Positions 22,451 through 49,694 are shown, counted from the first letter of the stretch. The stretch is DNA of 49,694 bases from Verrucomicrobiota bacterium (GCA_043783345.1 JAYVZM010000411.1:1-49694); one strand, 5' to 3'. Notes: generated by a model not told the origin, from the letters alone. Translations and numbers: made by a program.

Positions 22451-22735
22451 TTATGCCGTGGGGAGGCCCGCCGCGGTCTCCTCGGCGGTTTCCGCGTCGT
22501 CCTGGCCTCCCAGGTCGATCGGATTGCGGGTGAGGCTGAAAACGATCGAGCGGGCCAGGAAATCGGGCTCCATCGCCAGCAGGTGCACCTTGATGACTTC
22601 ATCGGCGGTAAGATCGAGGCCGGACTTTTCGTGCACGATTTTTTGCACGCGCGCGACCATTTCGGCGATTACCTTGTCGGCGTCCTGGAAGGTCGGGCGC
22701 TGTTCCCCGGGGGGCACGGTGGCGCGCGCGCTCAT
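22451..22735 (-). CDS. Hypothetical protein
   Basis: 94 aa, ATGA overlap with the ssb stop. Confidence 0.65.
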   Translation of the reverse strand: MSARATVPPGEQRPTFQDADKVIAEMVARVQKIVHEKSGLDLTADEVIKVHLLAMEPDFLARSIVFSLTRNPIDLGGQDDAETAEETAAGLPTA

Positions 22736-23115
22736 GTGCGGGGGCCGCGCGCCCGCGGCGTTGAGGGCTGCGGTTGCGCCGCGGGCTCGCCGGTCTTTTC
22801 CTCGCCCTTGGTGCGCGGGATCGGCGTGAGCTTGTCCGCGCGAATGGTGAAGAATTCCTTGTCGCCCTTGAGGTCGTAGTCGAGTTCGCCGGTGACGACA
22901 AAACGCGAGCCCTTCGTCACGACCTTTTTCGCATAGTTGCGCGTGTTCGCCCCAAAGAGCACGCCAATGGGAACGGCCTTTTCGAGGGGTTTCTTGCCGT
23001 CGTCGGTGCCGGCATAACGATTGTGGATGGCAAAGACGGTCGCGAAGGTTTCGCGATCGACGAGTTCAGCAGCGGCATTCACCTCGAGGGTGATGGTGTT
23101 GATGTTGTGGCTCAT
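22732..23115 (-). CDS. ssb: Single-stranded DNA-binding protein (divergent)
   Basis: 127 aa from ATG 23115. SSB OB-fold pattern: INTITL, V.FG...Y....TKGSRFVVTGELDY, TIRADKL. No acidic tip. Confidence 0.7.
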   Translation of the reverse strand: MSHNINTITLEVNAAAELVDRETFATVFAIHNRYAGTDDGKKPLEKAVPIGVLFGANTRNYAKKVVTKGSRFVVTGELDYDLKGDKEFFTIRADKLTPIPRTKGEEKTGEPAAQPQPSTPRARGPRT

Positions 23116-23606
23116 TTTGTGGCGGGGTTGAAGGGGAGGGGCAGGGTGGCGGTGATGAGGGCCGTGGCGAAGCGCTGGCCGTCCTGGTTGAGGACCAGGT
23201 TGACGGCCTCGATGCGCGTGCTGGGGCGTTCCTCGAGCTTTTTGAGGACGCGGAGAAATTCCGGGTAGTCGCGCAGCTGCGCGGCGTCCTTGCTGAACGC
23301 GTAACGAGCGAGCTGCACCGTGGCCTTGGTTTCGGTGCTGATCTGCTGCGCGGTCCAACCTTTCGGGAGCTCCTGCTGGAAGGTTTCGACGGCCGCCGGC
23401 GTCCAGAGCGCGCCCAGGGCGCGTTCGGCCTCGGCGGCCATGGTGCGGCTCTGGCCGGCGAAGCCCACCAGGTCTTTTTGCTCGGCCTCGAGCTTGGCGA
23501 CGCCCGGATCGGAGCTCGAGAGATTCGGCGGCCGCACCAGCCGGAGCGTGACGACCAGGGCGAACAAGCCGAGGGCGGCGGCGAGGATGATGATAGATTT
23601 TTTCAT
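23112..23606 (-). CDS. PilO/GspM-like alignment protein
   Basis: N-terminal TM, coiled coil, and a ferredoxin-like C-terminus (YPEFLRVLKKLEERPSTRIEAVNL). Located in the pilus operon. Confidence 0.6.
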   Translation of the reverse strand: MKKSIIILAAALGLFALVVTLRLVRPPNLSSSDPGVAKLEAEQKDLVGFAGQSRTMAAEAERALGALWTPAAVETFQQELPKGWTAQQISTETKATVQLARYAFSKDAAQLRDYPEFLRVLKKLEERPSTRIEAVNLVLNQDGQRFATALITATLPLPFNPATK

Positions 23607-23836
23607 GGGGGGAGAGAGTGCAGGTGAAAGCGCGCGATTTTCGCGCGATCGGGCGGGGCGCTCGTTTGGTGGGCGCGGTAGAGAGTGACGGCGACGCCGA
23701 GGTAGCGGATATGCTCGGCAGCCTGGTCGTAGCCGTTGGCGCGGAGGGCGGCGGCCAATTCGACCGGCGAGGTGCTGACCAGCAACGCCGCCGCGGCGTA
23801 AACCGTCTGCATCGGGTCGTTGGCCGCCTCGCTCAT
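23603..23836 (-). CDS. Small hypothetical protein
   Basis: 77 aa with ATGA overlaps on both sides. Confidence 0.5.
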   Translation of the reverse strand: MSEAANDPMQTVYAAAALLVSTSPVELAAALRANGYDQAAEHIRYLGVAVTLYRAHQTSAPPDRAKIARFHLHSLPP

Positions 23837-25071
23837 GGTTTGAGAGTCCCGGTGAGCGTCCACGCGGCCGAGTTCAACGTGGCCTTGGGGGCCTTGAACT
23901 CCCAGGGCCGCGCGCCGCCGGCGGCCAAGGAGTCGATGAACTGCGCGAAGGGGCCTTTCTCCTGGCCGACGCCTTCGTAGGCGATGCCGTCGATCGTAAA
24001 CTGCGCGTCGCGATACCGGAAGCCCTGGAGCTGCAGGGCCGGCGGCATCGCCTGGGTCACCGCGTCCAGAAAGGCGCTCGGCCGGGGATTGGGCAGGGGC
24101 ACGGCGTCTACGACCTCCTTGGCGCCCAGGTAGGCGTCCTTAGCGGCCGTCAGCTTCGCCACCTCGGCAGTCAGCGTCCGGCGTCGTTGTTCGATGTTCT
24201 TTTCGTTCTGGAGCGCTCGGTAGCTATCGACGCCGTAGTCATACGCGAGGACGCCCGCGGCGAGCGTAGCGACAGCGGCAATCGCCAGGAGCGTGTGCGC
24301 CCGGCGCCACTTGAACGGCCGTTGCGCGAGGTTGGCGCAGTCGGAAGGCGAGAACGCCTCCGTGGCGAGAAACACCGGCCAGGTTTCCACCCGCGGGGTA
24401 AGGGCGTGTGATCCGAGGAAATCGGTGACGCGGGGGGGAATTTCCTCGGTTTCGCAGACCACCAGGACGTGCGCCGGCGGGTTCTTGCGGCTCGCGAGCG
24501 CGGCCCCGAGGTGCTCTGTCAAGGTGTCGAAGCTGCGGAGGAGGCGGATGGCCGGCTTGCCGAGCTCGTTGACGTGATAGAACAGGTAGTCGTCGCCGGC
24601 GACGAGCAATGCGAGGTCGAGGCCGTCGGATTTCGTCCGGACCGTGAGCAGCGCCGCCGGCGGGACGGCGACGCGCACACGGGCGGAATGGTTTTCCGCC
24701 AGCAGGTGGAAAACATGCTCGAGGCGCGGCCGGGCTTCGTAGTGGAGCACGGTCGTGTATTTCCCATCGAGGTGAGGTTGGGGTTTCGTGACGGCCCAGG
24801 AAATCGCCGGGTTCGTCAGCTCCCGATACTCGCCGGCGAAGATCTTGCCGAGCTTCGCGCGCGTGGTGTTCGCGCACTCGGCAACCACGCAATGCAATTC
24901 GTGGGGCTGATACACGACATCGAAGATACTCGGCGCGGGATTGGCCTCGTCGAGCATTTGCATGATCGCGGCCGACATGTCCGCGCCATCGGGCAGCGCG
25001 CGCACGGTCGCGCTGCCCGACGCCGAGTAGATGAGTGTGTTGCCGAATACGGCAAGAACGGGCGTGGTCAT
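23833..25071 (-). CDS. PilM-PilN fusion / GspL-like alignment protein
   Basis: Cytoplasmic domain of about 255 aa, then a TM helix, a coiled coil and a PilN-like domain (FLDAVTQAMPPALQL...FTIDGIAY...QFIDSL). Confidence 0.7.
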   Translation of the reverse strand: MTTPVLAVFGNTLIYSASGSATVRALPDGADMSAAIMQMLDEANPAPSIFDVVYQPHELHCVVAECANTTRAKLGKIFAGEYRELTNPAISWAVTKPQPHLDGKYTTVLHYEARPRLEHVFHLLAENHSARVRVAVPPAALLTVRTKSDGLDLALLVAGDDYLFYHVNELGKPAIRLLRSFDTLTEHLGAALASRKNPPAHVLVVCETEEIPPRVTDFLGSHALTPRVETWPVFLATEAFSPSDCANLAQRPFKWRRAHTLLAIAAVATLAAGVLAYDYGVDSYRALQNEKNIEQRRRTLTAEVAKLTAAKDAYLGAKEVVDAVPLPNPRPSAFLDAVTQAMPPALQLQGFRYRDAQFTIDGIAYEGVGQEKGPFAQFIDSLAAGGARPWEFKAPKATLNSAAWTLTGTLKP

Positions 25072-25844
25072 CAGACGTCGAGGATGTAGATGTAAACCGT
25101 CGTGGCGCCGTTGACCGGCGTGTCATAGACGACCGCGCCTTTGCGATCGAGGGTCGATTCGTTCGTGCTGAAATTGTCGCCGTCGATTTTCTTGCTGATC
25201 TTGTAGGCGACACTCGCGGGGCAATTCGGGATGACAACGTAAACGATCCGGCGGCCGGTCGCGATGTTGCTCGAGCCATCGAGGAAGAAGTTCGCGCCTT
25301 GAGCGCTTTCGGGGGTTGTGGCATTCGACACCCTGCACTCCACGCGATTGCACAACGAATAGTCGCGCGTGGGCGCGGCATCCGGGCTCATCTTGAACGA
25401 CTGCGTCGGAATATCCCAAAGCACGTCGGCCGCCGCGGAGTTCGTGGCGACGAGGTTCGGGCCGGCCGGGATGTTGATGCCCCGCTCCGCGCATTTCTCG
25501 GTGAGCAACGCGGGCGCCAGCGTGGTGCAGTTGGAAATTGTGGCAAAGGCCGTCGCGCTGAATAACGCCCCTGTGGCCGGGATCTGGCCGCCGGCGGTTG
25601 CCTCGGTGATCGGGACCACGTTGCCGTGCTCCAGGGCGAATTGCGTCGTCGCATCTTTGATGGATTTGACGGCCGTCGTGACTGCGGACGCCTTGCCGTT
25701 TTCAGCGGCGAGGGTGTAGCCGGCGATCAGCGTGCCGATGATGGCGGTGACAATGGCTGCCGCGATCAGGATTTCAGTAAGCGTGAAGCCACGCGTCGAA
25801 CGAGGGAGCTTTTGGGCTCCGAGCTTGTTGGTATGTTTTTTCAT
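25071..25844 (-). CDS. Type IV pilin (candidate major pilin)
   Basis: Class III signal RSTRG|FTLTEILIAAAIV, ATG 25844, 257 aa, several Cys residues. Confidence 0.88.
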   Translation of the reverse strand: MKKHTNKLGAQKLPRSTRGFTLTEILIAAAIVTAIIGTLIAGYTLAAENGKASAVTTAVKSIKDATTQFALEHGNVVPITEATAGGQIPATGALFSATAFATISNCTTLAPALLTEKCAERGINIPAGPNLVATNSAAADVLWDIPTQSFKMSPDAAPTRDYSLCNRVECRVSNATTPESAQGANFFLDGSSNIATGRRIVYVVIPNCPASVAYKISKKIDGDNFSTNESTLDRKGAVVYDTPVNGATTVYIYILDV

Positions 25845-25848
25845 GGGA

Positions 25849-26616
25849 TCAAAAATGGATGACGTAGAGGTAAACGTCGGTCCGGTCGTTGACCGGGGCC
25901 GCGTAGGCAGCCGGGCCGATGTCGTTGGCCGCGCCGGCCGCCGGTTGGGAATCCGGGGTGTTCGCCGCCTTCGCGAGGGCGAGGGCAAAGGACGCGGTGA
26001 CATTCGGCAGGCGATAATAGACCACGACGCGTTGCGCAGAGAGGTCCACGGCACGGGAAAGACGAAAGTTCGCGCCCAGAGCGGCGCTGGGGGCGGTGCT
26101 GGGGTCGCTCAGGCGCGACTCGAGGCGCGGCCAGGTGACGGCGATGGGGGCAGCGGTCCAATCGGCGGCCGCGGTGGAATACTGCGCGGCCGGCGAAAAG
26201 AGAAACGTCTTCGAAGCAGTATCCCATTTGACTGCTTCGGCCCATAGCGGCTGGGAAGTCCCATAGGACGGGGGCGTAAAGCCCTCCACGATGCGATATG
26301 CGAGCATGATGGCGTCGAAGTTCGCCGCCTGGTCCTGCTTAGCGACGGAGCCGCCGGCGAGCGCGCCGGAACTCAATACGGTCCCCCCATTACCGGCCCG
26401 CGTTACGGGCAGCGGCTCAGGCAGGGTGCGGGCGTTCACAGCGTCGCGAATGAAGAGGCCATGTTCGCGGGCCCGCCGCAGAAGCGCGCCGGCGCGCGCT
26501 CGTTCGGAGGCCGCGCCGAAAGCGGCTATGAGGGTGCCGAGGATCGCGGTCACAATGGCGGCCGCGATCAGTATCTCGGTGAGCGTGAAAGCCCGGGTGC
26601 TGCGGAAGGTTTTCAT
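25849..26616 (-). CDS. Type IV pilin (paralogue)
   Basis: MKTFRSTRA|FTLTEILIAAAIV, 255 aa. Shares R.E.R.S...P.SA.GANF with its neighbour. Confidence 0.85.
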   Translation of the reverse strand: MKTFRSTRAFTLTEILIAAAIVTAILGTLIAAFGAASERARAGALLRRAREHGLFIRDAVNARTLPEPLPVTRAGNGGTVLSSGALAGGSVAKQDQAANFDAIMLAYRIVEGFTPPSYGTSQPLWAEAVKWDTASKTFLFSPAAQYSTAAADWTAAPIAVTWPRLESRLSDPSTAPSAALGANFRLSRAVDLSAQRVVVYYRLPNVTASFALALAKAANTPDSQPAAGAANDIGPAAYAAPVNDRTDVYLYVIHF

Positions 26617-28274
26617 AGCAGGTTGGCAAAAACGTCCTCGATCGTTGTCAGGCCGGCCGCCGCCTTGCGGAGGCCGTCGTCGCGCAGCGTGCGCGCGCCG
26701 TGTTGTTCGATCAGCCGGGCGCGGCACACGGCTTCGCTGGCGCCGGAGGTGACGAGTTCGGCGATGGCATCGAAGCGGAAGATTTCAAAAACACCGATCC
26801 GGCCTTTTTTGCCGCGGCGACACTCCGGGCAGCCCTTCACGTTGGCGCGATATAGCTGCGTCCCGGCGGGGAGCTGGTAGCGATCGCACAGCGCGGAGCT
26901 CTGCGGGTGGGGTTCACGGCAATGCGGGCAGAGGCGCGGCACGAGGCGTTGCCCAATCGAGGCCTTCACGGCGCTTGCGACGAGAAAAGGATCTATGTGC
27001 GATTTCCACCCGAGGAACCGGGAGAGGACGCCGGTGGCGTCGTTGGTGTGGAGTGTCGAGAACACCAGGTGCCCGGTGAGGGCGGCGCTCAGCGCCAGCG
27101 CGCCGGTCGCCACGTCGCGGGTCTCGCCCACCAGGATGACATCCGGGTCGTGCCGCATGAAATTGCGGAGAATATTGTCGAAGCTAAGCGAGGTTAGTTC
27201 GTTCCGGATGCGCTCGTTGATTGAAACCTGCGTGTAGTCGGGAATCGTGTATTCCACCGGCTCCTCGGCGGTGAGGATCTTCAAATCCCGGACGGGCAGC
27301 GTCGCAAGGGCGCTATACATGAGCGTCGTTTTGCCGGAGCCGGTCGGGCCGGTGCAGTAGATCAGGCCATAAGGCAGGGCGAGGATGTCGCGCAGCTGCG
27401 CGATATGCTCGTCCCACATACCGAGCTCGGCGAAACTGAGAATGTTCGCCGTCTGGTCCTGGATGCGAATGACGGCATTCTCGGCGACCTGGGCCGGAAG
27501 CGTGCTGACGCGGAAGGTGTATTTCCGGGAACCGAACTCCTCGGAGAACTGGCCGTCTTGCGGCAGGCGGCGCTCAGAGATATTGAGGCGGGCGGCGGTC
27601 TTCACCGCCTGCACGAGCGAATTATTCTCGTCCCGGGCGATGTAGTTGTGGTCGGAGATCTCACCGTCGACGCGCAACCGGATCCGAACGTTGTTCGGCA
27701 TGTTCTCGATGTGGATGTCGCTCGCCCGTTCCTGCACGGCCACCCGGATGAGTGCGTGCAGGTAGTCGTTGTTATTTTCGATCGTGAGGAGTTCCCGGTG
27801 GGCCTCGTCGATCGCAGCTAGGATGTCCTTCTTCGCCGCGACGCGGAAATTGACGTGCCGGCCGGGGAAATCGCGGGTCGCGTCCGTGAGGGTGTAGGTC
27901 GCCGGATTCGCAACGGCGATTTCAACACTTTGGCGCGTGGCCTTAAACGGGAGGATGACGTGTTGAACTGCAGCGGGACGCGACAGCAGGCGCGCGGCCG
28001 CGCGGTCCACCACGGCCGGGGTGAGGTCCACGAGCGCGAGCTTGTGGCGCTTGGCGAAGTGCTCGGCGATGCGGCGCGGGGTCACCATCGCCAGGTGCTC
28101 GAGCATGTCGGCAAGTGTCCCCTGCTGGTGCTGGCGGAGCTGCGCGAGCGCGGTTTCGAGCTGGGCCGGGGTCAGGCTGCCCTCTTCGACCAGCGCGGTT
28201 CCGAGCCACAACGCCCCGGCAACGCCGTTGCCGGCGGCCGGGCTGTTCTTCGTCGGGTTTTGCGTTTGCAGCAT
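26613..28274 (-). CDS. pilB: PilB/GspE-type pilus assembly ATPase
   Basis: ASDIHIE, R.RVDG, ERRLPQDG, GPTGSGKTT, EEPVEY, RHDPDVILVGETRD, TGHLVFSTLHTN, Cys metal site CPHC...GCPEC, GRIGVFE. ATG 28274. Confidence 0.93.
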   Translation of the reverse strand: MLQTQNPTKNSPAAGNGVAGALWLGTALVEEGSLTPAQLETALAQLRQHQQGTLADMLEHLAMVTPRRIAEHFAKRHKLALVDLTPAVVDRAAARLLSRPAAVQHVILPFKATRQSVEIAVANPATYTLTDATRDFPGRHVNFRVAAKKDILAAIDEAHRELLTIENNNDYLHALIRVAVQERASDIHIENMPNNVRIRLRVDGEISDHNYIARDENNSLVQAVKTAARLNISERRLPQDGQFSEEFGSRKYTFRVSTLPAQVAENAVIRIQDQTANILSFAELGMWDEHIAQLRDILALPYGLIYCTGPTGSGKTTLMYSALATLPVRDLKILTAEEPVEYTIPDYTQVSINERIRNELTSLSFDNILRNFMRHDPDVILVGETRDVATGALALSAALTGHLVFSTLHTNDATGVLSRFLGWKSHIDPFLVASAVKASIGQRLVPRLCPHCREPHPQSSALCDRYQLPAGTQLYRANVKGCPECRRGKKGRIGVFEIFRFDAIAELVTSGASEAVCRARLIEQHGARTLRDDGLRKAAAGLTTIEDVFANLL

Positions 28275-28284
28275 GGCGGGTTCG

Positions 28285-29838
28285 TCAGCGGACGGCAACG
28301 GGAGCGATGGCGGCCGGAGGCACGGCCGCGACGCGGGCGGCCCCGGCGCTCGGCGAGTGGATTCGCGCGGTGATGATGATGACAAGCTCGCTACGCTGCG
28401 TTGTGCGGGCGTCGGTCCGGAAAAGTGCGCCGATAAACGGGATTTTCGCTAAACCAGGCGCGCCGCGCGTGGCGGTGCCCACGGTCGAATTGGCGAGGCC
28501 GGCCAGAATCGTGGTGTCACCACTCTTGAGGCTGAGTCGGGTGCCCGCGCGCTGCACGTCGGTGACGGCCGCCTGCTGGCGGTTGTCGGGACTCTTGTCG
28601 ACGCGGACGAGGTTCGAGCGCTCGGGTTTGACATCGAGGATGGTGTCGTAAGGCGTCGGGATGGAGGCGGTGACGGAAAAGATCGTCCCAAAGGTCAGTG
28701 TCTCCTTCGTGTAAACGGCGTTCTCGGTGGTGGTCGTCCCGGTGGTCGTGTTGCCGGTGGTCTGGGTTGCGCTGAGGGTGAAGAAGCCCTGCTCGCGGCC
28801 AACTACGAGGTAAGCCGTCTGGTTGTTCATAACGCGCACCTGGGGTTTTGCGATCGTGCGGACCTCGGCCTGTTCGCTGAGCGCGTTGATGAACGCGGTG
28901 ATTTTGCCGGCGGAGATTTTGGCCGTCAGGGTATTGGCCGGAAGGGTGCTTGGCCCGATCGACGTAATGTCCGTCGCAAGGCTCGCCGCCTGCAGGGTGA
29001 TGTCGCCGAGCTTCGCGGTTATTGCGGAGTAATCGACCCCGAGTTTGTGGTCGTCGTTTGTCGTCACCTCGAGGATTTGGGCGTCGATGTCCACCTGTCG
29101 GCCGACTTTCTCGTTCGTTTGCGCCACATAGGGAGCATAGTGTTCGCGGTGGCGCTTAGGGGAGGCGGTCACGATAAGGAGGCCGCTATTCGGGTTTATC
29201 GTGAAGTGCTCTGAGGCCCGCGCGGTGCTTTTCAGGTCGGCTGCGATGTCCTGCCAGAAGTCCGCCTCGTTCTTTTCGGAAATCGAAATGTTGCTCTGGC
29301 CGCCGGTCTGGCTGTTGCCCGATATGCCGTTGCCGGTCGTCAGGTTTTGCTGGTTCGTCCCGCCGTTTTGATTCTGGCTGTTGAGGCTGCCGCTTGAGCT
29401 GCTGGAAAGCGCGATGCTGGTCTGGCTCGAGCTGGTGCGGGTGTTCGGCGAGGCGAGGAATTCGTAGAATACCTCTTGCTGCGCCTTGATGTAGACGTGG
29501 CCGCCTGTCTCTTCGTAGAAGAGGTCCAGCGGCTGCACGATGGCATCCAGGATGCTGCGGACGGTGCCGCCGGCGGGCAGATCGCGATTGATTTCTCCGG
29601 TGATCGCCGGATCAACGATGAAGGGAATGCCGTAGGTGCGGCCGAGGAGGAAGAACGCTTGTTCGAGCGGCTGCTTGGCCACGTTGTAGGCGTGCGCCGG
29701 TTGATCGAGGAGCGACGGCGGCGGCGGGGGGGGAGCGACCGCCAGCTCCGGGGGCGGCGTGGGAGTTTGCGCGTCTTGCCCCTGGGCAAGGCGGCCCAGG
29801 AGGGCGAAGGCGAGGAGGAGCTTAATTTTTGATTTCAT
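28285..29838 (-). CDS. Secretin (PilQ/GspD/MshL-like)
   Basis: Signal peptide from ATG 29838, S/G/N-rich insert, QVDIDAQILEV, NNQTA, GDT.ILAGL, PGLAKIPFIGALF, SELVIIITARI. Confidence 0.9.
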   Translation of the reverse strand: MKSKIKLLLAFALLGRLAQGQDAQTPTPPPELAVAPPPPPPSLLDQPAHAYNVAKQPLEQAFFLLGRTYGIPFIVDPAITGEINRDLPAGGTVRSILDAIVQPLDLFYEETGGHVYIKAQQEVFYEFLASPNTRTSSSQTSIALSSSSSGSLNSQNQNGGTNQQNLTTGNGISGNSQTGGQSNISISEKNEADFWQDIAADLKSTARASEHFTINPNSGLLIVTASPKRHREHYAPYVAQTNEKVGRQVDIDAQILEVTTNDDHKLGVDYSAITAKLGDITLQAASLATDITSIGPSTLPANTLTAKISAGKITAFINALSEQAEVRTIAKPQVRVMNNQTAYLVVGREQGFFTLSATQTTGNTTTGTTTTENAVYTKETLTFGTIFSVTASIPTPYDTILDVKPERSNLVRVDKSPDNRQQAAVTDVQRAGTRLSLKSGDTTILAGLANSTVGTATRGAPGLAKIPFIGALFRTDARTTQRSELVIIITARIHSPSAGAARVAAVPPAAIAPVAVR

Positions 29839-36002: not shown

Positions 36003-36018
36003 TGGGAGCTAGTGTTTA

Positions 36019-36802: not shown

Positions 36803-36859
36803 GGGAGTTTTTGTTTTTGGAGTCTGCGGATCGGGTTGGTTGCGCGTGGCCCTCGCGCA

Positions 36860-36895
36860 AGACCTAGCTTGGCTAGCCCAGCTAGCCAAGCAAGC
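36860..36895. repeat. 9-bp nnnGCTAGC array, site I
   Basis: agacctagc ttggctagc ccagctagc caagcaagc. Confidence 0.7.
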
Positions 36896-36928
36896 CCTAA
36901 AACAACTCTAGCGGAAAAACCCGGCGCG

Positions 36929-38242: not shown

Positions 38243-38246
38243 CTCT

Positions 38247-40434: not shown

Positions 40435-40440
40435 GGCGAA

Positions 40441-41358: not shown

Positions 41359-42410
41359 TTGGATAAGGTGGGTTCACGCGCAGCGGCCACGGTCGCGGCC
41401 GTGCCGCGACGGGCGAGCTGCGCGTCGATCGCTTGACGGGGGAAAATGTAGAATTCGGTCCCTGCGGTGACTTGGACGTATACGCCGGAGTCCGTGATCT
41501 GTTTGCGGATCTGGTCCGAATACTGTCCGACGTAGGCCTCGGCGGAGGCCAGCGCGGCGTTGCCCAGCGTTGGCAGCGGATTGCGGATGACCTGGCCCGT
41601 CAGCGCGTTGCTGCTGACATCGTATTGCTTGAGCGCCGAGATGCCGCTTTCCAAGGCGGTGCGGGCCGCCGCCTGGATGCGTTCGTTGTTGAGGTCCTGG
41701 ATGAGTTCGCCGCGCAGGCCGGAGCGGCCGTCCGGGTGGCCCCAGGTCTGAGTCAGGGGGTCGTAGTCGCGGGAGAGCGCGCGCCCGTCCACCTGCAGCT
41801 CGAGGCCGTTGTTCTCGTCCCGGGTGCGCCAAACGAACATCCAGCGGCCGTCGGCCGCGATCCGGTCGCGTTCGTGACCGGGGGCCGTGGAATCGAGGAT
41901 CGCTAGGGTGCCGGCGGGAATGACGAGCTGGGAAACGCCGTCCTGGTCGATGTTTCTCATGTCCTCGAGGACGATCGCAATCACGGGCGAGCCGTCGGCC
42001 GTCGAATCGAGCGTGTTGACGAGTTTGCACGGGATGAGGGTGCCGTAGGGCAGATAGCGGGACGAAACGGCGGGGGCCTTCGGCGCCGGCGCGGGCGTCG
42101 CGGGAGTGTAGAAGGTCATCGGTGCGGGCAGCGCGAGGAGGTTCTTGCGCAGTTCGGCCGGGATCTCCCTGGGGGCGTCGTCGCGGTCCGGCCGCTCGGG
42201 CGGCAACGTCAGCTCGGTGACGGTCTTGCCGATTTCCTTGATCGCGCCGGGGACCGCGGGCTTGCGGTTCACGGCTTCGGCCGGAACCGCCGCGGCGCTC
42301 TCGCGCCGCGAGCGCTGAACGACCGTGACGGTGAGCCAAACAAAAAGCGCCAGGACGGCGGCCGCGAGAAACGGCACACTGAACAGAATGCGGATCGTTT
42401 TGGCGAGCAT
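41355..42410 (-). CDS. VirB10/TrbI-like core complex protein
   Basis: N-terminal TM, Pro-rich linker, YLPYGTLIPCKLVNTLDS, VIPAGT, DG..GLRG, V.AGTEFYIF. ATG 42410. Confidence 0.82.
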   Translation of the reverse strand: MLAKTIRILFSVPFLAAAVLALFVWLTVTVVQRSRRESAAAVPAEAVNRKPAVPGAIKEIGKTVTELTLPPERPDRDDAPREIPAELRKNLLALPAPMTFYTPATPAPAPKAPAVSSRYLPYGTLIPCKLVNTLDSTADGSPVIAIVLEDMRNIDQDGVSQLVIPAGTLAILDSTAPGHERDRIAADGRWMFVWRTRDENNGLELQVDGRALSRDYDPLTQTWGHPDGRSGLRGELIQDLNNERIQAAARTALESGISALKQYDVSSNALTGQVIRNPLPTLGNAALASAEAYVGQYSDQIRKQITDSGVYVQVTAGTEFYIFPRQAIDAQLARRGTAATVAAAREPTLSK

Positions 42411-42418: not shown

Positions 42419-42607
42419 TCAGTTTTGCGGGACGATCCGGCGACAGGCCCGCGGCTTGCGACGGGCGCGAGGATCGTTGACGCACGCCGAACAGAGGTCG
42501 GGTTCCACCCAACGGCACGGGCGACCGGTGCGCGCGACGCAGCCGGAGCAATCGTATTCAGTGCAGCCGCAAACACGGCACGCGGTTTCGTTGGTGGTGG
42601 CCTTCAT
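42419..42607 (-). CDS. Small Cys-rich (zinc-binding-like) protein
   Basis: CRVCGCTEYDCSGC....RPCRWVEPDLCSAC. ATGA overlap with the upstream gene, and it fills the gap exactly. Confidence 0.7.
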   Translation of the reverse strand: MKATTNETACRVCGCTEYDCSGCVARTGRPCRWVEPDLCSACVNDPRARRKPRACRRIVPQN

Positions 42608-43599
42608 TTCGAGGGAACAACGTCCACCAGGACGTTGAAGTTGTTTTGGAGATTGATGTTGGCGCGCGTGCCGTCCGGATTGCCGGTAATCGCGAGATAG
42701 GCGACAGCCTGGCCGGTCTGATAGGCGCCGAGGATCTCGGCCAAGCGCGCCCGGGCGCGCTCGTCATCTGTGCTGTGTTTCTTCGCGAGCCGGGCGGCGG
42801 CGAGTCGGGCCGTTATCTGCCGGGCCTCCTCATCGAGCGCGGCGGCATTAGGACACGATGGAATCGTTCCCCTTGCGTCCGCGATGCTGCAAAAGAACGT
42901 GCGTTCGCCGATCTTCACCGCGAGGGAGTCCGGCCGGAATGCCAGCGGCCGCGGCGTCTTGTTCACGAAAACAACGCGAAGGACGATCGTGTCCTCGGCC
43001 TCGAAGCGCCAGGCCTGCTCTATCAGCACGTCGCAAAGTGGGTAGGGAATGCGAAACGACTTCTCCTGGGCGGTGATGTTGCGCTGGTAGCCAGGATAGG
43101 CGGCTGCGATGACGCCGAAGGCCTTCGCCTCATCGAGCATTTCGACCAGCCGAGTGACGCCAACGCGCGGTGTCTTGGCGGAGGCCTTCGCGCGCGCATT
43201 CCCCGACGCCGGCGGCGCCCGGAGTAAGGTCAGGCCGCGGGTCGGTTCGTCGGAGAGGACGAAAACGAAGCCGTAAATCCGCCCCTCAAAAATGACATTC
43301 AGGTCGGACCGCGCGTTCGGCATGATCGCGCGCACGGTGAAATAGTTGGTGGCCGGCTCGTGATCGATCTGGACCGGCTGCGGCGCCGTGTCCGCCGCAC
43401 GCATCAAGCCGATACCCTGGAAGCCAAGGCCGGCGGCCGGAAACACAATCGTGGTCGGCAGGTTCGGCGCGATGCCGACGACGTAGGTTTGGTCCGGCTG
43501 CAGGTATTGCGACTGCATCCGTCCAGTGGGAACGTCGGGCGTGGCGGCCCGGAGGGCGGCCACGGTGGCGCTCATTGCAAGGAATAGTCGAAGTCCCAT
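42604..43599 (-). CDS. VirB9/TraK-like core complex protein
   Basis: Signal peptide, then TTIVFP and LNVIFEGRIY in a two-domain beta-rich layout. Lies between the virB8-like and virB10-like genes. Confidence 0.68.
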   Translation of the reverse strand: MGLRLFLAMSATVAALRAATPDVPTGRMQSQYLQPDQTYVVGIAPNLPTTIVFPAAGLGFQGIGLMRAADTAPQPVQIDHEPATNYFTVRAIMPNARSDLNVIFEGRIYGFVFVLSDEPTRGLTLLRAPPASGNARAKASAKTPRVGVTRLVEMLDEAKAFGVIAAAYPGYQRNITAQEKSFRIPYPLCDVLIEQAWRFEAEDTIVLRVVFVNKTPRPLAFRPDSLAVKIGERTFFCSIADARGTIPSCPNAAALDEEARQITARLAAARLAKKHSTDDERARARLAEILGAYQTGQAVAYLAITGNPDGTRANINLQNNFNVLVDVVPSK

Positions 43600-44186
43600 A
43601 CGGCAAGCGGGGGGCGATTGTTGAGCATCATGTTCGGGTTGCGAACGAGGATGAGTTGGAGAGAAAAACGGCGCGTCTCACTGTGCGGCCGATCGCGAAA
43701 AACGCCGGTGCGGATGAGCTGGCCGGTGAGCGTCACCTTAACGATTTTCTCGTCCTGGACGACGATCTGCGCGGGCTCGGTGATGTTCATCTTCTGGTGA
43801 AACTGCTTCGCGTGAAACTCCTTTGTTTCCGCGGCAATGAGCGCGCGCAGTTTTCCAAGGCAGGACTGACCGCCGCCGCTGCTCTGGTCGGAGAGGAACC
43901 AGCGCTCGAGCTCGGCCGGCCGGTCCGCACCTTCGGGATTGCGCGAGAGCGCGGCGCGCGCGGCCTGGAACGCGCAGTCCTCGTGCAGGTCCGTGGCCTC
44001 GTCAAAGGAGAGGGCGGGGGCCACGGTATACGAGCCGGGGCCGTTCTGGATGATGAAGCGCTCGCGTTGCTTGTGGATCGAGGCTAGCCAGACGGGTTGG
44101 AAAACGGCGATGCCGAGCAAGGCAAAGAGGGCGACGGTTTTCCCGTGCTCGATCGCGCGGCGGTCAATGAATTGGTAGACGCTCAT
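43572..44186 (-). CDS. VirB8/TraE-like protein
   Basis: 204 aa from ATG 44186; one N-terminal TM and an NTF2-like C-terminus (V.LTGQLIR...RNPNMMLNNRPPLAVWDF). Confidence 0.72.
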   Translation of the reverse strand: MSVYQFIDRRAIEHGKTVALFALLGIAVFQPVWLASIHKQRERFIIQNGPGSYTVAPALSFDEATDLHEDCAFQAARAALSRNPEGADRPAELERWFLSDQSSGGGQSCLGKLRALIAAETKEFHAKQFHQKMNITEPAQIVVQDEKIVKVTLTGQLIRTGVFRDRPHSETRRFSLQLILVRNPNMMLNNRPPLAVWDFDYSLQ

Positions 44187-45010
44187 CGGACAAGATGGGT
44201 AGCGTTGAGCATGCTCGTTACGCCGGGCCCGGACAGGGCGGCTCCGCCGTGGGCACAGAGTGAATAGGCGAGCGGCGGCGTGCCGATGATGCCCCCGAGG
44301 AGAATTAGGCCGGAAGCGAACGGGGCGAGGAAGTTGCCGATGAAACCGGCGCCGGCCAGCGAATCGACCCAGGAGACGGAGAGGCCGTTGCTCACGGTGA
44401 AAACGAAACCGGCAATCACGGTGACGATGGCGAAGAAGAGCGGCCAGAGGAGCACGGAAATCCAAAAGGCAATGAAGCCCTGGCACTGATTGCGGATCGC
44501 TGGGATCGTGAGCCCGGCGACCGCCACGGGCATGGCCACCATGCAGAACCGTTCGACCCCGACTTGCACGAATAGCAGGGGAATGGCGATGACCGAGCCA
44601 ATCGTCGCGATGAGTCGCATGAGGCCGACGACGACAAGATCCATGAGGACGCTCCCGACCGCGTTCCATACTGAGAAGTCGAGGCCGGGCTGGTTTACTG
44701 CCGTGTTCACAGCGGCCGTGATTCGGTGGAAAATGTCGGAGAGCCCGGTGTGGTAGTCGAGCAGCGCATAGGGCAGGTAGTAGCAGGCATCGCGCATGAG
44801 ACCGGTCCACAGCGGGATGGCGGCGATAAAGATAGAGGCGACGCAAACGCGCATGAGCGGCTTGAAATGGTCCTGCTTCTCACCGAGGACGGTCATGACG
44901 TAGCCGACGATCGCCAGCATGAAGGCGATCATCATGAATGGCAGCTCGAGGGCGGCGAACGGGCTACCGACTTGGAGACTTTGCAGGGCTTCTAGGAGTT
45001 GTTTGTTCAC
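44183..45010 (-). CDS. VirB6/TrbL-like polytopic membrane protein
   Basis: 275 aa with about six hydrophobic segments and VLLWP, positioned between the virB5-like and virB8-like genes. Confidence 0.72.
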   Translation of the reverse strand: MNKQLLEALQSLQVGSPFAALELPFMMIAFMLAIVGYVMTVLGEKQDHFKPLMRVCVASIFIAAIPLWTGLMRDACYYLPYALLDYHTGLSDIFHRITAAVNTAVNQPGLDFSVWNAVGSVLMDLVVVGLMRLIATIGSVIAIPLLFVQVGVERFCMVAMPVAVAGLTIPAIRNQCQGFIAFWISVLLWPLFFAIVTVIAGFVFTVSNGLSVSWVDSLAGAGFIGNFLAPFASGLILLGGIIGTPPLAYSLCAHGGAALSGPGVTSMLNATHLVR

Positions 45011-45159: not shown

Positions 45160-45954
45160 TTACTGGCCCAAATTGGCGTCGCGGTCACGGGACTCGCGGA
45201 AGGATTGTCGGAGGCGCTCGCGTTCCACGTCCCGCTCCATCGCGGCGCGATTCTCGTTAAGCGTTGCCTGGACCTGCAGGAGTTTGATCTTCTGGTCGAG
45301 CTGCCGCTGGAGCTCGGTCAAGCGGAGCGTAAGCGTCGCCTTTTTCTCCTGTAATTTCGCGAGCTTTTCCTGGTCGGTGGATTCGATGATTTCTTTGCTC
45401 GTGTCCGCAATGTCGGTGAGGATTTCGGAGATTTCCTTGTTCGCCTGGTCGAGACTGCGCTCCAGGTCGGCGTGCTGGGTGTAGATCGTGTTGAAACGTT
45501 TCAGCTTAGCGTCGTCGTAGGTAAAAGGCGTGCCGTAGGTGGTCTTGAGGTCGAGCGCTTCATAGTTGCCGTGGGCGGTGTAGTTGAGGGCAGGCGTGCC
45601 GGTATCGACGATGGCGTTGATGCGCCAGTTAGCGCCGAGCGTTGCGCGGAGGTTGTCGCCGCGATTTCGAAGGCTGATGGCGCGGTCATAGACACCCTGC
45701 CAGTCCCCGATGCGACCGACGATGTTCGCCTTCATGTTGTTGATTTCTTCGATTGTCCGGAGCTGCTTGCTGGCGAAATCTTCGAATTTTTTGATTTCCT
45801 CTGCCCAATGCGCGAGTTCCTTCACCTCTTTGCCGACTTCCCAGGAGTGCTGAATCGGGTTGAACACGATGTCCCCAACGCCTAATACGGCGAGAACGGG
45901 CGCGGCCGCGGCGGAAGCGGCGAGCGCGACGATAGTGATGGTTTTTGCTTTCAT
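45160..45954 (-). CDS. VirB5/TrbJ-like protein
   Basis: Signal peptide, GDIVFNP motif, all-helical coiled coil, upstream of the virB6-like gene. Confidence 0.72.
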   Translation of the reverse strand: MKAKTITIVALAASAAAAPVLAVLGVGDIVFNPIQHSWEVGKEVKELAHWAEEIKKFEDFASKQLRTIEEINNMKANIVGRIGDWQGVYDRAISLRNRGDNLRATLGANWRINAIVDTGTPALNYTAHGNYEALDLKTTYGTPFTYDDAKLKRFNTIYTQHADLERSLDQANKEISEILTDIADTSKEIIESTDQEKLAKLQEKKATLTLRLTELQRQLDQKIKLLQVQATLNENRAAMERDVERERLRQSFRESRDRDANLGQ

Positions 45955-45975
45955 GCGAATTAGTGGGACGGTGAA

Positions 45976-46335
45976 TTATTGCGGGAGGCGGACGTATTCG
46001 ACCCCCGCGTTGACGATCACGCCGTCGATTTTCCGCGCGGGCACGGTGAGGGGCACCAAATCGGCCTGCGGCCGATTACTGTCCGCAGCGTCGGTGTTCT
46101 GGGTGTTGTTGATCGCCTGGTAGAGCGATTTCGCGGCCTGCAGCTGCCCGAGAGCGTAGGCCTCGCGCAGGCGCACGTCCTTCTTGGTGCCGGCGAGAAT
46201 CTCGGCGTTGCGGCGCTCTTCCGGGGTGGTGGCGTTCTGGGTGGCGACGGTGGAGCGAACGTCGGCGGCGATCTTTTCGCGCGAGGCGCAGCCGGTGAGC
46301 AGCGCGAGGACAGTGACTATGATGAGGGTTCTCAT
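45976..46335 (-). CDS. Small lipoprotein (VirB7-like or entry-exclusion candidate)
   Basis: Lipobox LLTG|C, 119 aa, inside the T4SS operon. Confidence 0.7.
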   Translation of the reverse strand: MRTLIIVTVLALLTGCASREKIAADVRSTVATQNATTPEERRNAEILAGTKKDVRLREAYALGQLQAAKSLYQAINNTQNTDAADSNRPQADLVPLTVPARKIDGVIVNAGVEYVRLPQ

Positions 46336-46580
46336 TTTTGGGTGTGGGATTTGTGATAAGCGGTGACGAAAGCCGGTGCGGCGAGGTCCCGAGCGACGAA
46401 ATACTCCGTAAGATAGTTCACGTATTTGTGGGTGGCCTTTTGGATGAGCAGGAGGTCGCCCGGGAGCTCGGTTGGTGTGCCAATCCGCGTCTGGATCGTT
46501 GTGATCGCCTCCGCGAGCTGGCGGAGGTCCTCGGGCAGGTCGCGAAGAACCGCGTTGTAGTCATGGGCGTTAGAGGGCAT
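46332..46580 (-). CDS. Hypothetical protein
   Basis: 82 aa, coupled to the downstream lipoprotein gene. Confidence 0.6.
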   Translation of the reverse strand: MPSNAHDYNAVLRDLPEDLRQLAEAITTIQTRIGTPTELPGDLLLIQKATHKYVNYLTEYFVARDLAAPAFVTAYHKSHTQK

Positions 46581-46589
46581 TGCGGATGG

Positions 46590-47534
46590 TTAGAAACCGG
46601 CGGTGCGCAAAGCAGGGGTGGCCGCGGCGGTGCGACCGCTGGCGATCGTGAGCGGTCGGGTTGGAGAGGGGGCGCGGGAGAGTTGCGCCGAAAGGGAGCC
46701 GGACCGTGGCGGCTGCGGCCTGGTGCCATCGGACTCACGCATCCGCTCACCGTTATCCCGGCGCAGTTCGTCCGCCGCGGACCCGGCGTTGGCGTGTATG
46801 CCCGCTTTCATCCGCTCGACCTCGGCGGGATCGGGGCGCTCCTGGTCGCGAGGCGTAACCCGCGCGACGGCCGCCCGGATGGCGGAACTGATGGCGTTTG
46901 GCGTCTTGCGGGCCCAGGCGATCGAGCGGCCGAAATCGCGGCCCGTGACGGTGGAGAATAACGGTTGATTTGGGCTGGCGGCCGGCGGGGCGAGTTTCGC
47001 TGGCTGGAAAAGAATCGCGGGCGTGGCACCTGCGAGCACTTCCTGGATTCGCTCGGTGGCCTCGGTGAGAGGTAGTGACCCGAGGCGGGCGACGTCGGCC
47101 ACGAGCTGCTGCGCGTAAACTTTCACGGCGGGATGGTCCGGCTTGCGCTTCGGGTCATCATAGATTTTGCAGAGCCGTTCGATTCTCGTTGTGACCTCGT
47201 TGCGCGCGAGCGGCGCGCCGATAAGATCCTTGATGCTCGTCGGGTCGGTAAAACGCTGGTCGACCGCCGGCAAGTCCGCGGAGCCTTCGCGTGAGGTGAG
47301 CAAGGCGGCGACGCGGCTGTGGAGCTTCTGGAGGGCGCTGCGGCAACGCTCGTAGCTTGCGTAGTCCGGTTCGTAGCAGCCGTGCTGCCGGACTTCGTAA
47401 CTCTCCCGAATCGTGGCGGCCGCGCCGCCGACATTCGGGAGGAGCTTCGCGAGTTCGTCAGCGGCGTTCATTGTGACGCCTGCCGGCAGGGTGCCAGCCG
47501 CGAGCGCGGCGAGTTCATTCGGCTTGAGGTTCAT
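46590..47534 (-). CDS. Hypothetical cytoplasmic protein
   Basis: 314 aa, ATGA overlap with the virB4 stop. Helical N-terminal part and a disordered basic C-terminal tail. Confidence 0.65.
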   Translation of the reverse strand: MNLKPNELAALAAGTLPAGVTMNAADELAKLLPNVGGAAATIRESYEVRQHGCYEPDYASYERCRSALQKLHSRVAALLTSREGSADLPAVDQRFTDPTSIKDLIGAPLARNEVTTRIERLCKIYDDPKRKPDHPAVKVYAQQLVADVARLGSLPLTEATERIQEVLAGATPAILFQPAKLAPPAASPNQPLFSTVTGRDFGRSIAWARKTPNAISSAIRAAVARVTPRDQERPDPAEVERMKAGIHANAGSAADELRRDNGERMRESDGTRPQPPRSGSLSAQLSRAPSPTRPLTIASGRTAAATPALRTAGF

Positions 47535-49694
47535 CGTTTATCTCCTGGGCTGAGTTGCGGGGCCGGAACCATGGGCAGGTAGAGTCGCGCCGTGCCGGCG
47601 AGGGCGGGCACAAGGCTGGGGTTGTAGTAGACGAGCGACGAATAGCGGTCGCCGGCCGGGAGCATTTCCGGGGTGGGGAAACTGAGGATCTCTTTTTGAA
47701 TCGGCTCGGGCAGTCGGCCCGGAAGGCGCTCGGCGAGCGCCGTGACATCCTCGGTGTCGAGCTGTTTGAGGAGGATGTATTGGCGGCAGTTGCCGATGAC
47801 GTAGGGAGCAACGCCGGTGTCGAGGAGCTTCCTGAGCTGTTGGATCACCATCCAAATGACGCAGCTATATTTCCGCATCTGCGTGCAAAATTCCACGATC
47901 AGCTTGTCGGCATCGGGCACGTCGAGGTAGCGCATCATCTCCTCGAGCACGACGCGCTTCCTCAGATGGCGCGGCATGTTGATGATGCGCTGGCGGATTT
48001 TGCCGGTCATGAGAAGCGAGACGGCAGTTTTGAGTTCCTTTTGCTCTTCGGGAATTTTGCCGAGTTCGAAGTGCACGACGCGGCTGTCGAGCGGGACGGT
48101 GGAAACCCCGTCGAAGAGGGGACCGTAGTCGCCCTCGGCAGCGGACCAATTCCGGAGCATGGTCGCCATGTCGTTCAACTCGTCGCTGCGGAATTCCGGC
48201 ATCCGGTGGGTCAGCATCAGCTCGGCAAGGGCGGCGTGCTGCGGATATTCGTCCGGCCGGAAGCGCGTGAAGACGTGTTGCTCGAGCAACGGCCGCGTCG
48301 CGTTGTCATGGGCGAAGTGGAAAATGTCGCTCTCGGTCAGGTCCTTCACGAAAGAGCAAATGCGGTCCTCGCCGGCGGCCAGGCCGTCGCGGATGACCGT
48401 GTAGGCGTCCGTGAGGCTGTCGTCATGGGTCATGTGCTGGCGGTGCCAGAGATGCACTGCGTAGGACTCGCGCTGCACGATGTTCGCGAGTTCGCGGTTC
48501 TTGCGAAGCCAGTCGCCGGCGGCCGTGGCGTAGAGCAGGCGCAGGTATTGATTGAGGATCGCGCGGCGGCGCGAAACGATCATTGGGTCTTTCGGCGTCC
48601 CGGTCATGTGGAGCGCGAGCGCCGAGGCGAAACTGGTGTGAAGCGAACTGAGCGGCAGACCGCCGGTGTCCAGATAGTTGATCGTGTGGGTGCCGTCCAC
48701 CTGGACGCGGATCGTTTTGCAACCGTGGGCCTCGGTGTAGGGGGTGTAGTCGCTGCCTTCCTCGATGATCGTCTCGAACTCGTAGTAAGGCGCGGACTGG
48801 AACATCATGTCGTTTAGAGTCGTCGTCTTGCCGGCGCCGGTGGAGCCGATGAAAAGCGTGTGCTGCGCGGTGGCGGGCGTTCCCAGGAAGGACGGGATGG
48901 CGACAATCGAGCGCGGGGCGTCGGTCGGGGTATCCTTCGTCGCGCCGTCCATCAGGATTTCGGGGGCGTCCGGCCTGCCTTCGAACGTGCTTGTGAACGG
49001 CACGATGTCGGCGAGGTCGATGTCCACCATGTCGACGTGGCGCTTGTCGTAGCCGTAGGTCCAGCCTGGCAGGGTCGCGTAGAAGAGTTTCCGGGTGGTG
49101 GTCGCGAGGTTCGCCAGGTGGCATTGGACGCCGTTCATTCCTTCCAGCGCGCGCTTCGCGAGCGCAACGCGGGAAGTCAGGTCCTCCTCGGTCTTGGCCC
49201 ACACCCGCACCGTGTAGAGGGCAGAGAGCATTTTCTGGCTGCCCCGGTAGAGCCGGCGAATCTGTTCCTCCTCCAGGTTTTTCGACTCGTCCTTGGATAC
49301 GCTCTGCTCGCCGCGCTGCGCGGCGTCGGCGTTTTCCTTTCGCAGCGTCGAAACCGCGTCCTCCTTCTTCGTTATGAGCTTCTCCATGTCGATGTGGTGC
49401 GCATTGGTGACGAGCTCGTAGTCGTTGAAGGGAAGGCGGGCGAGGGCGTGGAACAGGCCCGATTCGCTGCGGAGCTGGCAGCTCCGCAGCGTTACGATCG
49501 TCTGATAATACCCATTCAGGTGGATGCCGTGCGGGGCGTGACTCGCGATGCCGGACGAGAAGAGTTGCTCGAGGATGGACAAATCCGCGTTGTGCTGGCG
49601 CGCGGAATTGCCGGGCGTCTCGGCGAGCGACGGATCGAAGGCCCGCTCAAGGAGGCGGAAATGGTCCTCGGTGGTGAGACGCTCGACGTGGGCG
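47531..49694 (-). CDS. virB4: VirB4-family T4SS ATPase, C-terminal part
   Basis: HTLFIGSTGAGKT (Walker A), IIEEGSDY, YGPLFDG, VHFEL, KRVVLEE (Walker B), QMRKY...IQQ. In frame with 1..607. Confidence 0.92.
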   Translation of the reverse strand, partial: AHVERLTTEDHFRLLERAFDPSLAETPGNSARQHNADLSILEQLFSSGIASHAPHGIHLNGYYQTIVTLRSCQLRSESGLFHALARLPFNDYELVTNAHHIDMEKLITKKEDAVSTLRKENADAAQRGEQSVSKDESKNLEEEQIRRLYRGSQKMLSALYTVRVWAKTEEDLTSRVALAKRALEGMNGVQCHLANLATTTRKLFYATLPGWTYGYDKRHVDMVDIDLADIVPFTSTFEGRPDAPEILMDGATKDTPTDAPRSIVAIPSFLGTPATAQHTLFIGSTGAGKTTTLNDMMFQSAPYYEFETIIEEGSDYTPYTEAHGCKTIRVQVDGTHTINYLDTGGLPLSSLHTSFASALALHMTGTPKDPMIVSRRRAILNQYLRLLYATAAGDWLRKNRELANIVQRESYAVHLWHRQHMTHDDSLTDAYTVIRDGLAAGEDRICSFVKDLTESDIFHFAHDNATRPLLEQHVFTRFRPDEYPQHAALAELMLTHRMPEFRSDELNDMATMLRNWSAAEGDYGPLFDGVSTVPLDSRVVHFELGKIPEEQKELKTAVSLLMTGKIRQRIINMPRHLRKRVVLEEMMRYLDVPDADKLIVEFCTQMRKYSCVIWMVIQQLRKLLDTGVAPYVIGNCRQYILLKQLDTEDVTALAERLPGRLPEPIQKEILSFPTPEMLPAGDRYSSLVYYNPSLVPALAGTARLYLPMVPAPQLSPGDKR
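49597..49694. repeat. Terminal direct repeat, copy 2
   Basis: Identical to 1-98. Confidence 0.97.

Follow-up and report, generated by a model that had tools for sequence, protein, structure and literature searches.

A type IV pilus gene block conserved beside a VirB-like transfer system on a likely conjugative plasmid of Verrucomicrobiota

The contig JAYVZM010000411.1 of a Verrucomicrobiota bacterium genome bin (GCA_043783345.1), 49,694 nucleotides long and hereafter called the window (that is, the whole stretch of DNA analysed), carries a VirB-like transfer system whose genes continue from virB10 directly into a lipoprotein gene, pilC, a pilin gene and a larger type IV pilus block. This feature is real and conserved. 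The element is likely a self-transmissible plasmid on which, as we consider fairly probable, the pilus would catch and hold recipients so that the VirB2-10-like channel delivers DNA. Its circularity, its gene content and order, the conserved virB10-lipoprotein-pilC-pilin junction, a separate clade of PilB ATPases and a pilus-specific domain on the junction lipoprotein were established directly.

A circular element with transfer genes

The first 98 bases of the window are identical to its last 98, and this exact terminal repeat makes it read as a circle of 49,596 bp. On the circle, virB4 forms a single frame without internal stop, running from position 607 across the junction to 47531. A metagenome contig 82% identical to the window (L031) holds, in the same order, everything from the ClpB-like gene, virB2, virB3 and virB4 to pilC and the pilin, and much of 29.7–49.7 kb is also covered by a variant of about 94% likeness from another study's soil run, in which one contig spans virB10 to the first pilin (X3). 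As in conjugative plasmids, the circle holds replication parts, VirB4, a MOBF (TrwC) relaxase-helicase (6356..9103, plus strand; PF08751, E 2e-81) and a type IV coupling protein (4397..5926, minus strand; PF02534 and PF10412). Judged by this gene content, the window is likely a circular, self-transmissible plasmid. Two other identities were rejected: an integrated element, the contig having no tyrosine integrase match (0), and a phage or prophage, for which two scans of viral contigs returned 0 relatives.

The window (contig C411) is the largest of the 462 contigs of a 73%-complete genome bin. Only three relatives have a taxonomic label, all of them Opitutaceae: a bin (L033) and two plasmids, which rank first and second among the 5 VirB4 matches from a set of 72,556 plasmids. 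The host is therefore likely an Opitutaceae bacterium, the assignment of the plasmid to the bin being itself uncertain.

From the transfer genes into the pilus block

All the genes named in an initial annotation of positions 22451..49694 were found, on the minus strand and about where it had placed them; virB2, virB3 and the start of virB4 are found at the window's left end, beyond that interval, and are joined to the rest through the 98-bp terminal repeat. The gene coordinates in this section are on the minus strand. The VirB2-like pilin (932..1237; 74% identical in L031) was recognized by its size, two hydrophobic segments and position, and the VirB3-like membrane protein (585..929) by position and size, neither having a family match. 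The VirB4 ATPase (about 890 aa overall) comprises an N-terminal part that crosses the circular junction (1..607), as the single frame on the circle and L031 indicate, and a C-terminal part (47531..49694) that matches TIGR00929 with 92 bits and TraC-F with 80 bits. Two open reading frames (ORFs) without assigned function (314 and 82 aa; 46332..47534), shared with the closest relative only, and a 119-aa lipoprotein gene (45976..46335), also present in pilus-less elements, precede a VirB5-like gene (45160..45954) whose positional counterpart in L094 exceeds the PF07996 cut-off while the window copy has no such match. The VirB6-like polytopic membrane protein (44183..45010) was assigned by position, its L094 counterpart giving a weak TraG_N match (E 0.001). 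All Atlas feature neighbours of the VirB8-like protein (43572..44186) belong to the VirB8 clan (DotI/TraM, PFL_4703, VirB8, TraK-B and TraE, 0.92–0.93), and the predicted model of the VirB9/TraK-like outer-membrane core protein (42604..43599; pLDDT 88) has F-plasmid, Dot/Icm and R388 core-complex chains as its best Foldseek matches (E 9e-11 to 2e-6). VirB10/TrbI (41355..42410) matches PF03743 (E 1e-14). Profile searches against PDB sequences with the VirB8-like, VirB9-like, domain A and PilO-like alignments returned no true relative, and folds or features were needed. Homologues of VirB5, 6, 8, 9 and 10 thus stand in MPF_T order (MPF, mating-pair formation), VirB5 and VirB6 by way of a relative and position. 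No VirB11 was found on the element, where only PilB and PilT exceed the PF00437 cut-off on the contig.

After virB10 come the junction lipoprotein gene (40441..41358), a PilC/GspF platform protein (39229..40434; PF00482, E 1e-35) and a first large pilin (38247..39236; PF07963; 14-residue leader, 315 aa mature). The initial annotation had described this run as continuing from the virB genes with overlaps or gaps of 21 bp or less, which holds from virB4 to the first pilin except between virB9 and virB10, separated by 193 bp. A 62-codon Cys-rich ORF (42419-42607, minus strand) fills that gap, and the soil variant skips 77 bases there. An AAA ATPase gene (36929-38203) and a DUF7673 gene (36146..38203 for both; family matches) then split the pilus block, with gaps of 43, 126 and 143 bp. 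The second run, from 36002 to 22451, holds protease, adhesin, pilT, secretin, pilB, two pilins, pilMN, pilO and ssb, and its spacings of -17 to +10 bp bear out the tight coupling ascribed to it. The PilT-type ATPase (29822..30853) is followed by the secretin gene (28285..29838), whose product is closest to MshL (183 bits against a cut-off of 250) and scores 88 bits on the PilN-R64 model. Family matches and the tree identify the PilB assembly ATPase, which has an MshEN domain (26613..28274). Two paralogous pilins follow (25071..26616; leaders of 9 and 19 residues, mature lengths of 246 and 238 aa), where the relatives checked have a single one, and then a PilM-PilN-like fusion (23833..25071) whose C-terminal part matches PilN of the type IVa pilus model 3jc8 (E 5e-4), the PilM part being inferred. 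The PilO-like protein (23112..23606) has a weak best Foldseek match to Pseudomonas aeruginosa PilO (E 0.0098, TM 0.47), and the SSB-like protein (22732..23115) stays below the PF00436 cut-off (E 0.054). At the far edge of the block lies a conserved 127-aa protein gene (21908..22291) that follows the lipoprotein gene in pilus-less elements, so that the pilus block sits between genes that are near neighbours in those elements. Counts in the promoter scan (3 versus 2.5 by chance) and the terminator scan (22 versus 19.9) were at chance level, so that the operon structure is proposed from gene spacing.

These genes match the type IVa parts list (PilB, PilC, secretin and PilM/N/O/P), with N, O and P identified by weak profile or fold matches and M inferred. 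All three pilins have the F+1/E+5 N-termini previously noted, with leaders of 14, 9 and 19 residues; their mature sizes, 238-315 aa, exceed the approximately 150–175 aa given for type IVa major pilins (PMC9045228). Two earlier descriptions had to be corrected. The pilus system, called complete, has no prepilin peptidase among the scanned ORFs of the element, the genome bin having one on a chromosomal contig (C338), and the pil genes are not interleaved with the VirB genes, forming instead a block after virB10.

The PilT-type ATPase itself was correctly recognized: it scores 298 bits on the PilT/PilU model TIGR01420 (cut-off 319) versus 133 bits on TraJ, and in the ATPase tree the element PilTs cluster inside PilT/PilU, apart from R64 TraJ. 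PilT was observed on three plasmids and at no large-contig locus, and in genome G144 whole-genome searches left both element contigs without a PilT-like match. A plasmid of a cultured Termitidicoccus isolate (NZ_CP109797) has the same gene order as the window, pilT included; its PilT is identical to that of locus L079, and the two are counted once. On the TAV5 plasmid, pilT-secretin-pilB-pilin lie downstream of virB4, with virB8 and virB10 elsewhere.

The junction lipoprotein

The lipoprotein encoded between virB10 and pilC is chimeric, with a likely TraV-like domain (residues ~42-95), a coiled coil and a GspC/GspB/PilP-like C-terminal domain (~194-305). A lipoprotein after virB10 was recovered in 82 of the 113 loci compared below, its domains being scored with profiles seeded on the window's copy. 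The C-terminal domain occurs in 29/29 pilus-bearing versus 0/53 pilus-less loci, and the N-terminal one in 52/53 pilus-less versus 7/29 pilus-bearing loci; the window's lipoprotein has both. For the C-terminal domain, matches were obtained to the GspC domain of 3oss (E 0.008) and, in 17 of 22 members, to Pfam T2SSB. In GspC and PilP, this fold is a binder of secretins. For the N-terminal domain, hhalign against TraV (five sequences, four annotated as TraV and one positional) gave a probability of 54% and E 1.3e-4, and in a control search F TraV tied for top among 2725 ORFs, though at E 0.52. The domain occupies TraV's place in F-type operons and has TraV among its Atlas neighbours, below the naming bar, while Pfam, NCBIfam and PDB gave no TraV call for it. 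By its sequence, the lipoprotein is thus a true fusion of a transfer-system part with a pilus part; this chimera, whose GspC/PilP-like domain is tied to pilus-bearing loci in our comparison, is new, and offers the strongest hint that pilus and channel are physically coupled. A predicted complex of lipoprotein residues 21-145 with VirB9 and VirB10 scored 0.48 (best control 0.21), with a contact agreement of at least 47% and partner pLDDT of at least 59. We give it little weight: the mark used for such predictions is reached by 116/157 solved and 2/215 mismatched pairs, 18 of these solved pairs and both mismatches scoring 0.60 or less, and a similar complex, the F core, has already been solved.

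Recurrence of the junction

Of 400 other genomes from the host family, 115 have a VirB10 relative, as do 37 of 400 genomes sampled phylum-wide. We compared 113 loci with such a relative (3 collection scans + 10 + 100), chosen as best-scoring, non-random picks, 20 further regions being left out. Directly after the junction lipoprotein gene, 39 of them carry pilC, a recurrence that argues against a chance arrangement, and close relatives retain the pil genes, as the initial annotation required. The VirB10 tree, a quick search with stop-to-stop ORFs as rows, splits the pilus-bearing loci between two clades. The small clade includes the window (6 rows, support 98); the large clade has 35 rows and a support of 100, and pilus-less clades adjoin it. 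These two deep lineages, 36–41% identical to each other's seed, share the junction; one old gain followed by losses and recombination at a fixed junction both fit. The contigs that bear many of the large-clade loci measure 100 kb to 8.9 Mb, so that these loci are probably integrated. No tyrosine integrase was found within 100 kb of the pilus-bearing loci of genomes G144, G156, G321 and G402; a large serine recombinase in one flank (G144:C5) is a single case. As an observation apart, a Wadjet-like set (DUF3375, SMC-like, JetD; L037:18163 to L038:4799) lies beside one pilus-bearing element.

Between the first pilin and the secretin gene, the distance varies from 122 to 6217 bp (33 loci). In the window this slot contains a 1031-aa adhesin-like protein (30853..33948; PF18998), and 31 of the 33 loci have there an adhesin-like gene with a similar C-terminal tail; one pilus module (L087) has no adhesin at all. 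Such a variable slot is as would be expected of a partner-selecting adhesin. PilY1-type adhesins are described as attaching to the pilus tip through a C-terminal strand (PMC13533445), and by analogy the adhesin tail may attach to the pilus in PilY1 fashion. The neighbouring gene encodes a secreted M12-type metalloprotease (33945..36002) with an Ig domain and a glycine-rich hydrophobic C-terminal tail that weakly matches GlyGly-CTERM (E 0.003); among pilus-bearing loci it occurs only in L031 and L079, and also on the Termitidicoccus plasmid.

Origin of the two modules

All sampled element PilBs form one clade in the ATPase tree (29 rows, SH-aLRT 93; 102-row tree, 4 truncated rows dropped, quick search), apart from R64 PilQ and from the chromosomal PilB/GspE of six Opitutales genomes and the host. 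A recent capture of host pilus genes was accordingly rejected, as the host PilB/GspE/PilT are 31–40% identical over long matches and lie on separate branches. Genomes G000, G144, G189, G237, G246, G402 and G441 have 7 to 13 PilB/GspE/PilT-family ATPase matches apiece, many for one cell. The element PilB clade also includes two chromosomal pilT-secretin-pilB-pilin-pilM modules among housekeeping genes (L268:10401-19039 and L269:10725-18081), which may be sources or domesticated copies. Congruence was assessed with 22 loci and the window by comparing a VirB8-9-10 tree with a PilC-secretin-PilB tree. Of 20 splits, 8 are common to both (0.23 on average and at most 3 in shuffles), the Mantel rho within the large clade is 0.38, and the window pairs with L078 in the PilB and VirB10 trees alike. 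The expectation of a recurrent virB10-lipoprotein-pilC linkage with congruent trees was thus borne out for the linkage and in part for the trees. As far as these trees tell, transfer and pilus modules travel together and are also exchanged.

An apparently unclassified transfer system

Eight MPF classes have been defined by VirB4 phylogeny, and Verrucomicrobia are absent from the main text of that work (PMC4027160). The window's VirB4 stays far below all class cut-offs listed, among them those of the MPF_T-type (TIGR00929, 92 bits vs 643) and MPF_F (TraC-F, 80 bits vs 567) models, and has no match to MPF_G models at E 0.01. In a quick tree with references for T (2), F (3), I, B and FATA (1 each), with G, C and FA left out, 21 Verrucomicrobiota VirB4s form one clade (SH-aLRT 99) on a long stem outside all five classes, the single I, B and FATA references having long branches. 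Within the classes so sampled, the arrangement matches no known one, as had been proposed. One of 31 VirB9-like proteins matches TIGR03749, at E 0.03. The system resembles MPF_T (R388, VirB) in its order virB2-3-4...5-6-8-9-10, R388 also having a MOBF relaxase, and differs from it by the absence of VirB11, a VirB4 outside the T clade and a likely TraV-like lipoprotein after VirB10. It resembles MPF_F (F plasmid) in lacking VirB11, in the F core being the best fold match of its VirB9-like protein and, probably, in a TraV-like lipoprotein after VirB10; it differs in that its VirB4 lies outside the F clade, VirB5- and VirB6-like genes are present and no TraN, TraH, TraU, TraW or TraF matched among the scanned ORFs. 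Sequence comparison therefore places the Verrucomicrobiota system apparently outside the five MPF classes sampled, as a candidate new mating-pair class.

A ClpB-D2-like AAA+ ATPase gene (1458..2462, plus strand) is conserved next to these transfer genes and may encode a core ATPase of a channel without VirB11. This stand-alone gene adjoins the transfer genes either upstream of virB2 or after the lipoprotein gene (window, L036, L039, L042, L044 and 18 type-C loci).

Role of the pilus

Taken together, these data suggest that the pilus most likely works as an accessory for recipient capture, like the thin pilus of IncI plasmids, built from type IVa-like parts. In the mechanism that we propose, a host prepilin peptidase would mature the plasmid pilins, and PilB, PilC, PilMN and PilO would extend the filament through the plasmid secretin. 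The large adhesin of the variable slot, at the tip or surface, would determine the partner range, and on the window plasmid PilT would retract the filament and narrow the gap, most relatives managing without PilT. The chimeric lipoprotein would fill the secretin-binding role of PilP/GspC and may in addition anchor the base of the pilus to the transfer core, while the relaxase and coupling protein would feed single-stranded DNA through the channel.

Several observations weigh against this reading, in whole or in part. No pilC is seen in 74 of the 113 loci (a few incomplete), of which 42 continue into the 127-aa gene, 18 are labelled by ClpB as first downstream match and 14 show neither; the pilus is thus an accessory and the channel needs none. 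The N-terminal TraV-like domain was undetected in 22 of 25 lipoproteins of the large pilus-bearing clade, which counts against a general bridge. The gene for PilT is missing in 32 of the 33 pilus-bearing relatives with a visible pilin-secretin stretch, L079 being the one that has it, so PilT-driven retraction, initially stressed, cannot be the defining feature of the system; pilus retraction without PilT is on record (PMC6668835), and the absence of PilT does not exclude retraction. Transfer genes were undetected in 20 kb around the chromosomal sister modules L268 and L269, and such free-standing modules imply that this kind of pilus can serve other ends. Several well-supported splits conflict between transfer and pilus trees, indicating that the pilus module has been swapped between elements. 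All trees are quick searches with long branches, and the reading is drawn from sequence and model analysis.

A more elaborate version of recipient capture appears unlikely: a ninth, unclassified mating-pair class where, in one branch, the TraV-like end of the lipoprotein would grip VirB9/VirB10 and its PilP-like end the secretin, so that a retractile pilus reels the recipient onto the mouth of the DNA channel. Rather unlikely, too, is that the pilus is cargo for adhesion of the host to particles or for biofilm, sharing the promoter of the transfer operon without a part in mating. The free-standing sister modules, the swapping of the module between elements and the MshEN domain (of c-di-GMP-binding type) in the window's PilB would fit, MshEN domains being typical of attachment pili; a fixed junction across deep lineages and a pilus domain fused to a core transfer lipoprotein, however, are not expected of cargo. 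We regard as improbable that, in place of a long capture filament, the pilus genes encode an exporter resembling type II secretion by which adhesin and protease are displayed or released. PilC is best on GspF, PilB scores the same on PilB as on GspE, the lipoprotein domain has GspC and GspB as matches, there are only 2–3 large pilins, PilT is usually absent, and the protease tail weakly matches the GlyGly-CTERM family (E 0.003), whose members exit via type II secretion in Vibrio. Set against this are the PilN- and PilO-type parts and MshL-like secretin, the occurrence of PilT on three plasmids, the restriction of the protease to two pilus-bearing loci and a module (L087) without adhesin. Finally, that the PilT-type ATPase replaces the missing VirB11 for the channel, as TraJ/DotB do in MPF_I (where TraJ is PilT-related; PMC4027160), is very improbable even with no VirB11 on the element, since it scores 298 bits as PilT vs 133 as TraJ, groups away from R64 TraJ, is encoded inside the pilus block and is missing in 112 of 113 stretches around this transfer system.

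Gene transfer in Verrucomicrobiota is little described in searchable papers, and standard typing misses the system: NZ_CP109797 is typed non-mobilizable despite its relaxase and transfer genes, a result to which its frameshifted record may contribute. Besides a candidate new mating-pair class, the elements would represent a second, independent joining of a type IV pilus to conjugation. Pilus-less elements, those with a pilus without PilT and those with both make a natural series for examining how adhesion and retraction each contribute to mating, and such plasmids could be turned into native vectors for delivery in a phylum that has few genetic tools. Experimental work on the fused lipoprotein, the unclassified VirB4 clade and the pilus/PilT series would be worthwhile.

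Comparison with known pili

On IncI plasmids, type IV pili are reported to be required for mating in broth and in the gut and to have specificity adhesins (PMC9045228, PMC12282955); they are type IVb, TP114 having 11 pil genes in two clusters (PMC9045228, PMC12282955, PMC6232867). Like TP114 (IncI2) and R64 (IncI1), the window is a conjugative plasmid, to judge from its genes, that encodes a type IV pilus and a variable adhesin of its own. The type IVb pilus of TP114 has a PilS with a 26-residue leader and 185 aa, its own peptidase and a shufflon, whereas the window has leaders of 9–19 residues with F+1, pilins of 238–315 aa and PilN/PilO/PilP-like parts, and neither peptidase nor shufflase was found on the element. 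The window's PilB also groups away from R64 PilQ, and one of its transfer lipoproteins has a pilus domain fused to it. By these sequence traits the pilus is not a member of the IncI thin-pilus family. It resembles the MSHA pilus in its secretin, best on MshL, and its MshEN-bearing PilB; the MSH model consists of mshA, mshE, mshG, mshL plus mshM, with no peptidase in the locus (PMC6668835). Unlike MSHA, the window scores below cut-off and has only 2–3 pilins, and the PilBs of most relatives are about 395 aa long, without the N-terminal domain.

Genes for pilB and pilT also occur on other plasmids with transfer genes, namely IncP-2, pGSUB1, pTEGF4, pMESIL02 and Candidatus Manganitrophus plasmids. 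The source on the IncP-2 megaplasmids of Pseudomonas lists pilB and pilT as motility genes (PMC8849076), and among the tra genes of ICEAfe1 there is a single pilB-like gene (PMC6370655); in the texts consulted on IncP-2 and related PilT plasmids, no mating role is reported for these pili. On pTEGF4, virB8-11, virD4 and pil genes, including an MshL-like secretin, lie on one strand, and its PilT groups with that of the window (support 92, long branches). All these plasmids differ from the window by F- or T-type transfer and other gene orders. Of 64 matches, five PilT-bearing plasmids were examined. In three, the pilus cluster lies among or next to annotated transfer genes; a fourth, typed MPF_T, also has a pilus cluster, and the fifth has a lone pilT. 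PilT-type pili by conjugation genes on unrelated plasmids make the theme wider than this lineage, and the pairing is possibly a repeated, little-described one. For the Verrucomicrobiota layout no description was found in open-licence papers and preprints; supplementary tables of plasmid and integrative and conjugative element surveys may list such elements. We also noted PilT-containing pilus clusters on Geoalkalibacter, Ca. Manganitrophus, Limnohabitans and Allomeiothermus plasmids (L198-L201), all typed non-mobilizable, the first three clusters lying within or beside annotated transfer genes.

Other genes of the element and its relatives

The replication region of the circle contains iteron-like direct repeats (11247..11522), a likely replication origin, followed by a likely replication initiator (11514..12602, minus strand) without family match but with a 31% relative on the Termitidicoccus plasmid, and by ParA (14478..15056, minus strand; family match). 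The circle's non-transfer half holds a DUF932 gene (9887-10675), a LuxR-type response regulator without kinase (16821-17525) and an SOS-response peptidase (SRAP; 19887-20660). A conserved ORF (21129-21830, minus strand) with a relative on the Termitidicoccus plasmid has by eye the look of a phosphoribosyltransferase fold, with no family match, and is preceded by a 14-pair terminator-like hairpin (21834-21866). Among the related plasmids, the 102,402-bp record NZ_CP109797 (L178, L179) has many frameshifts and the appearance of a 51-kb plasmid dimerized head to tail, and the TAV5 plasmid CP007054 has an inverted duplication of three to four genes (34473-41852; L180).

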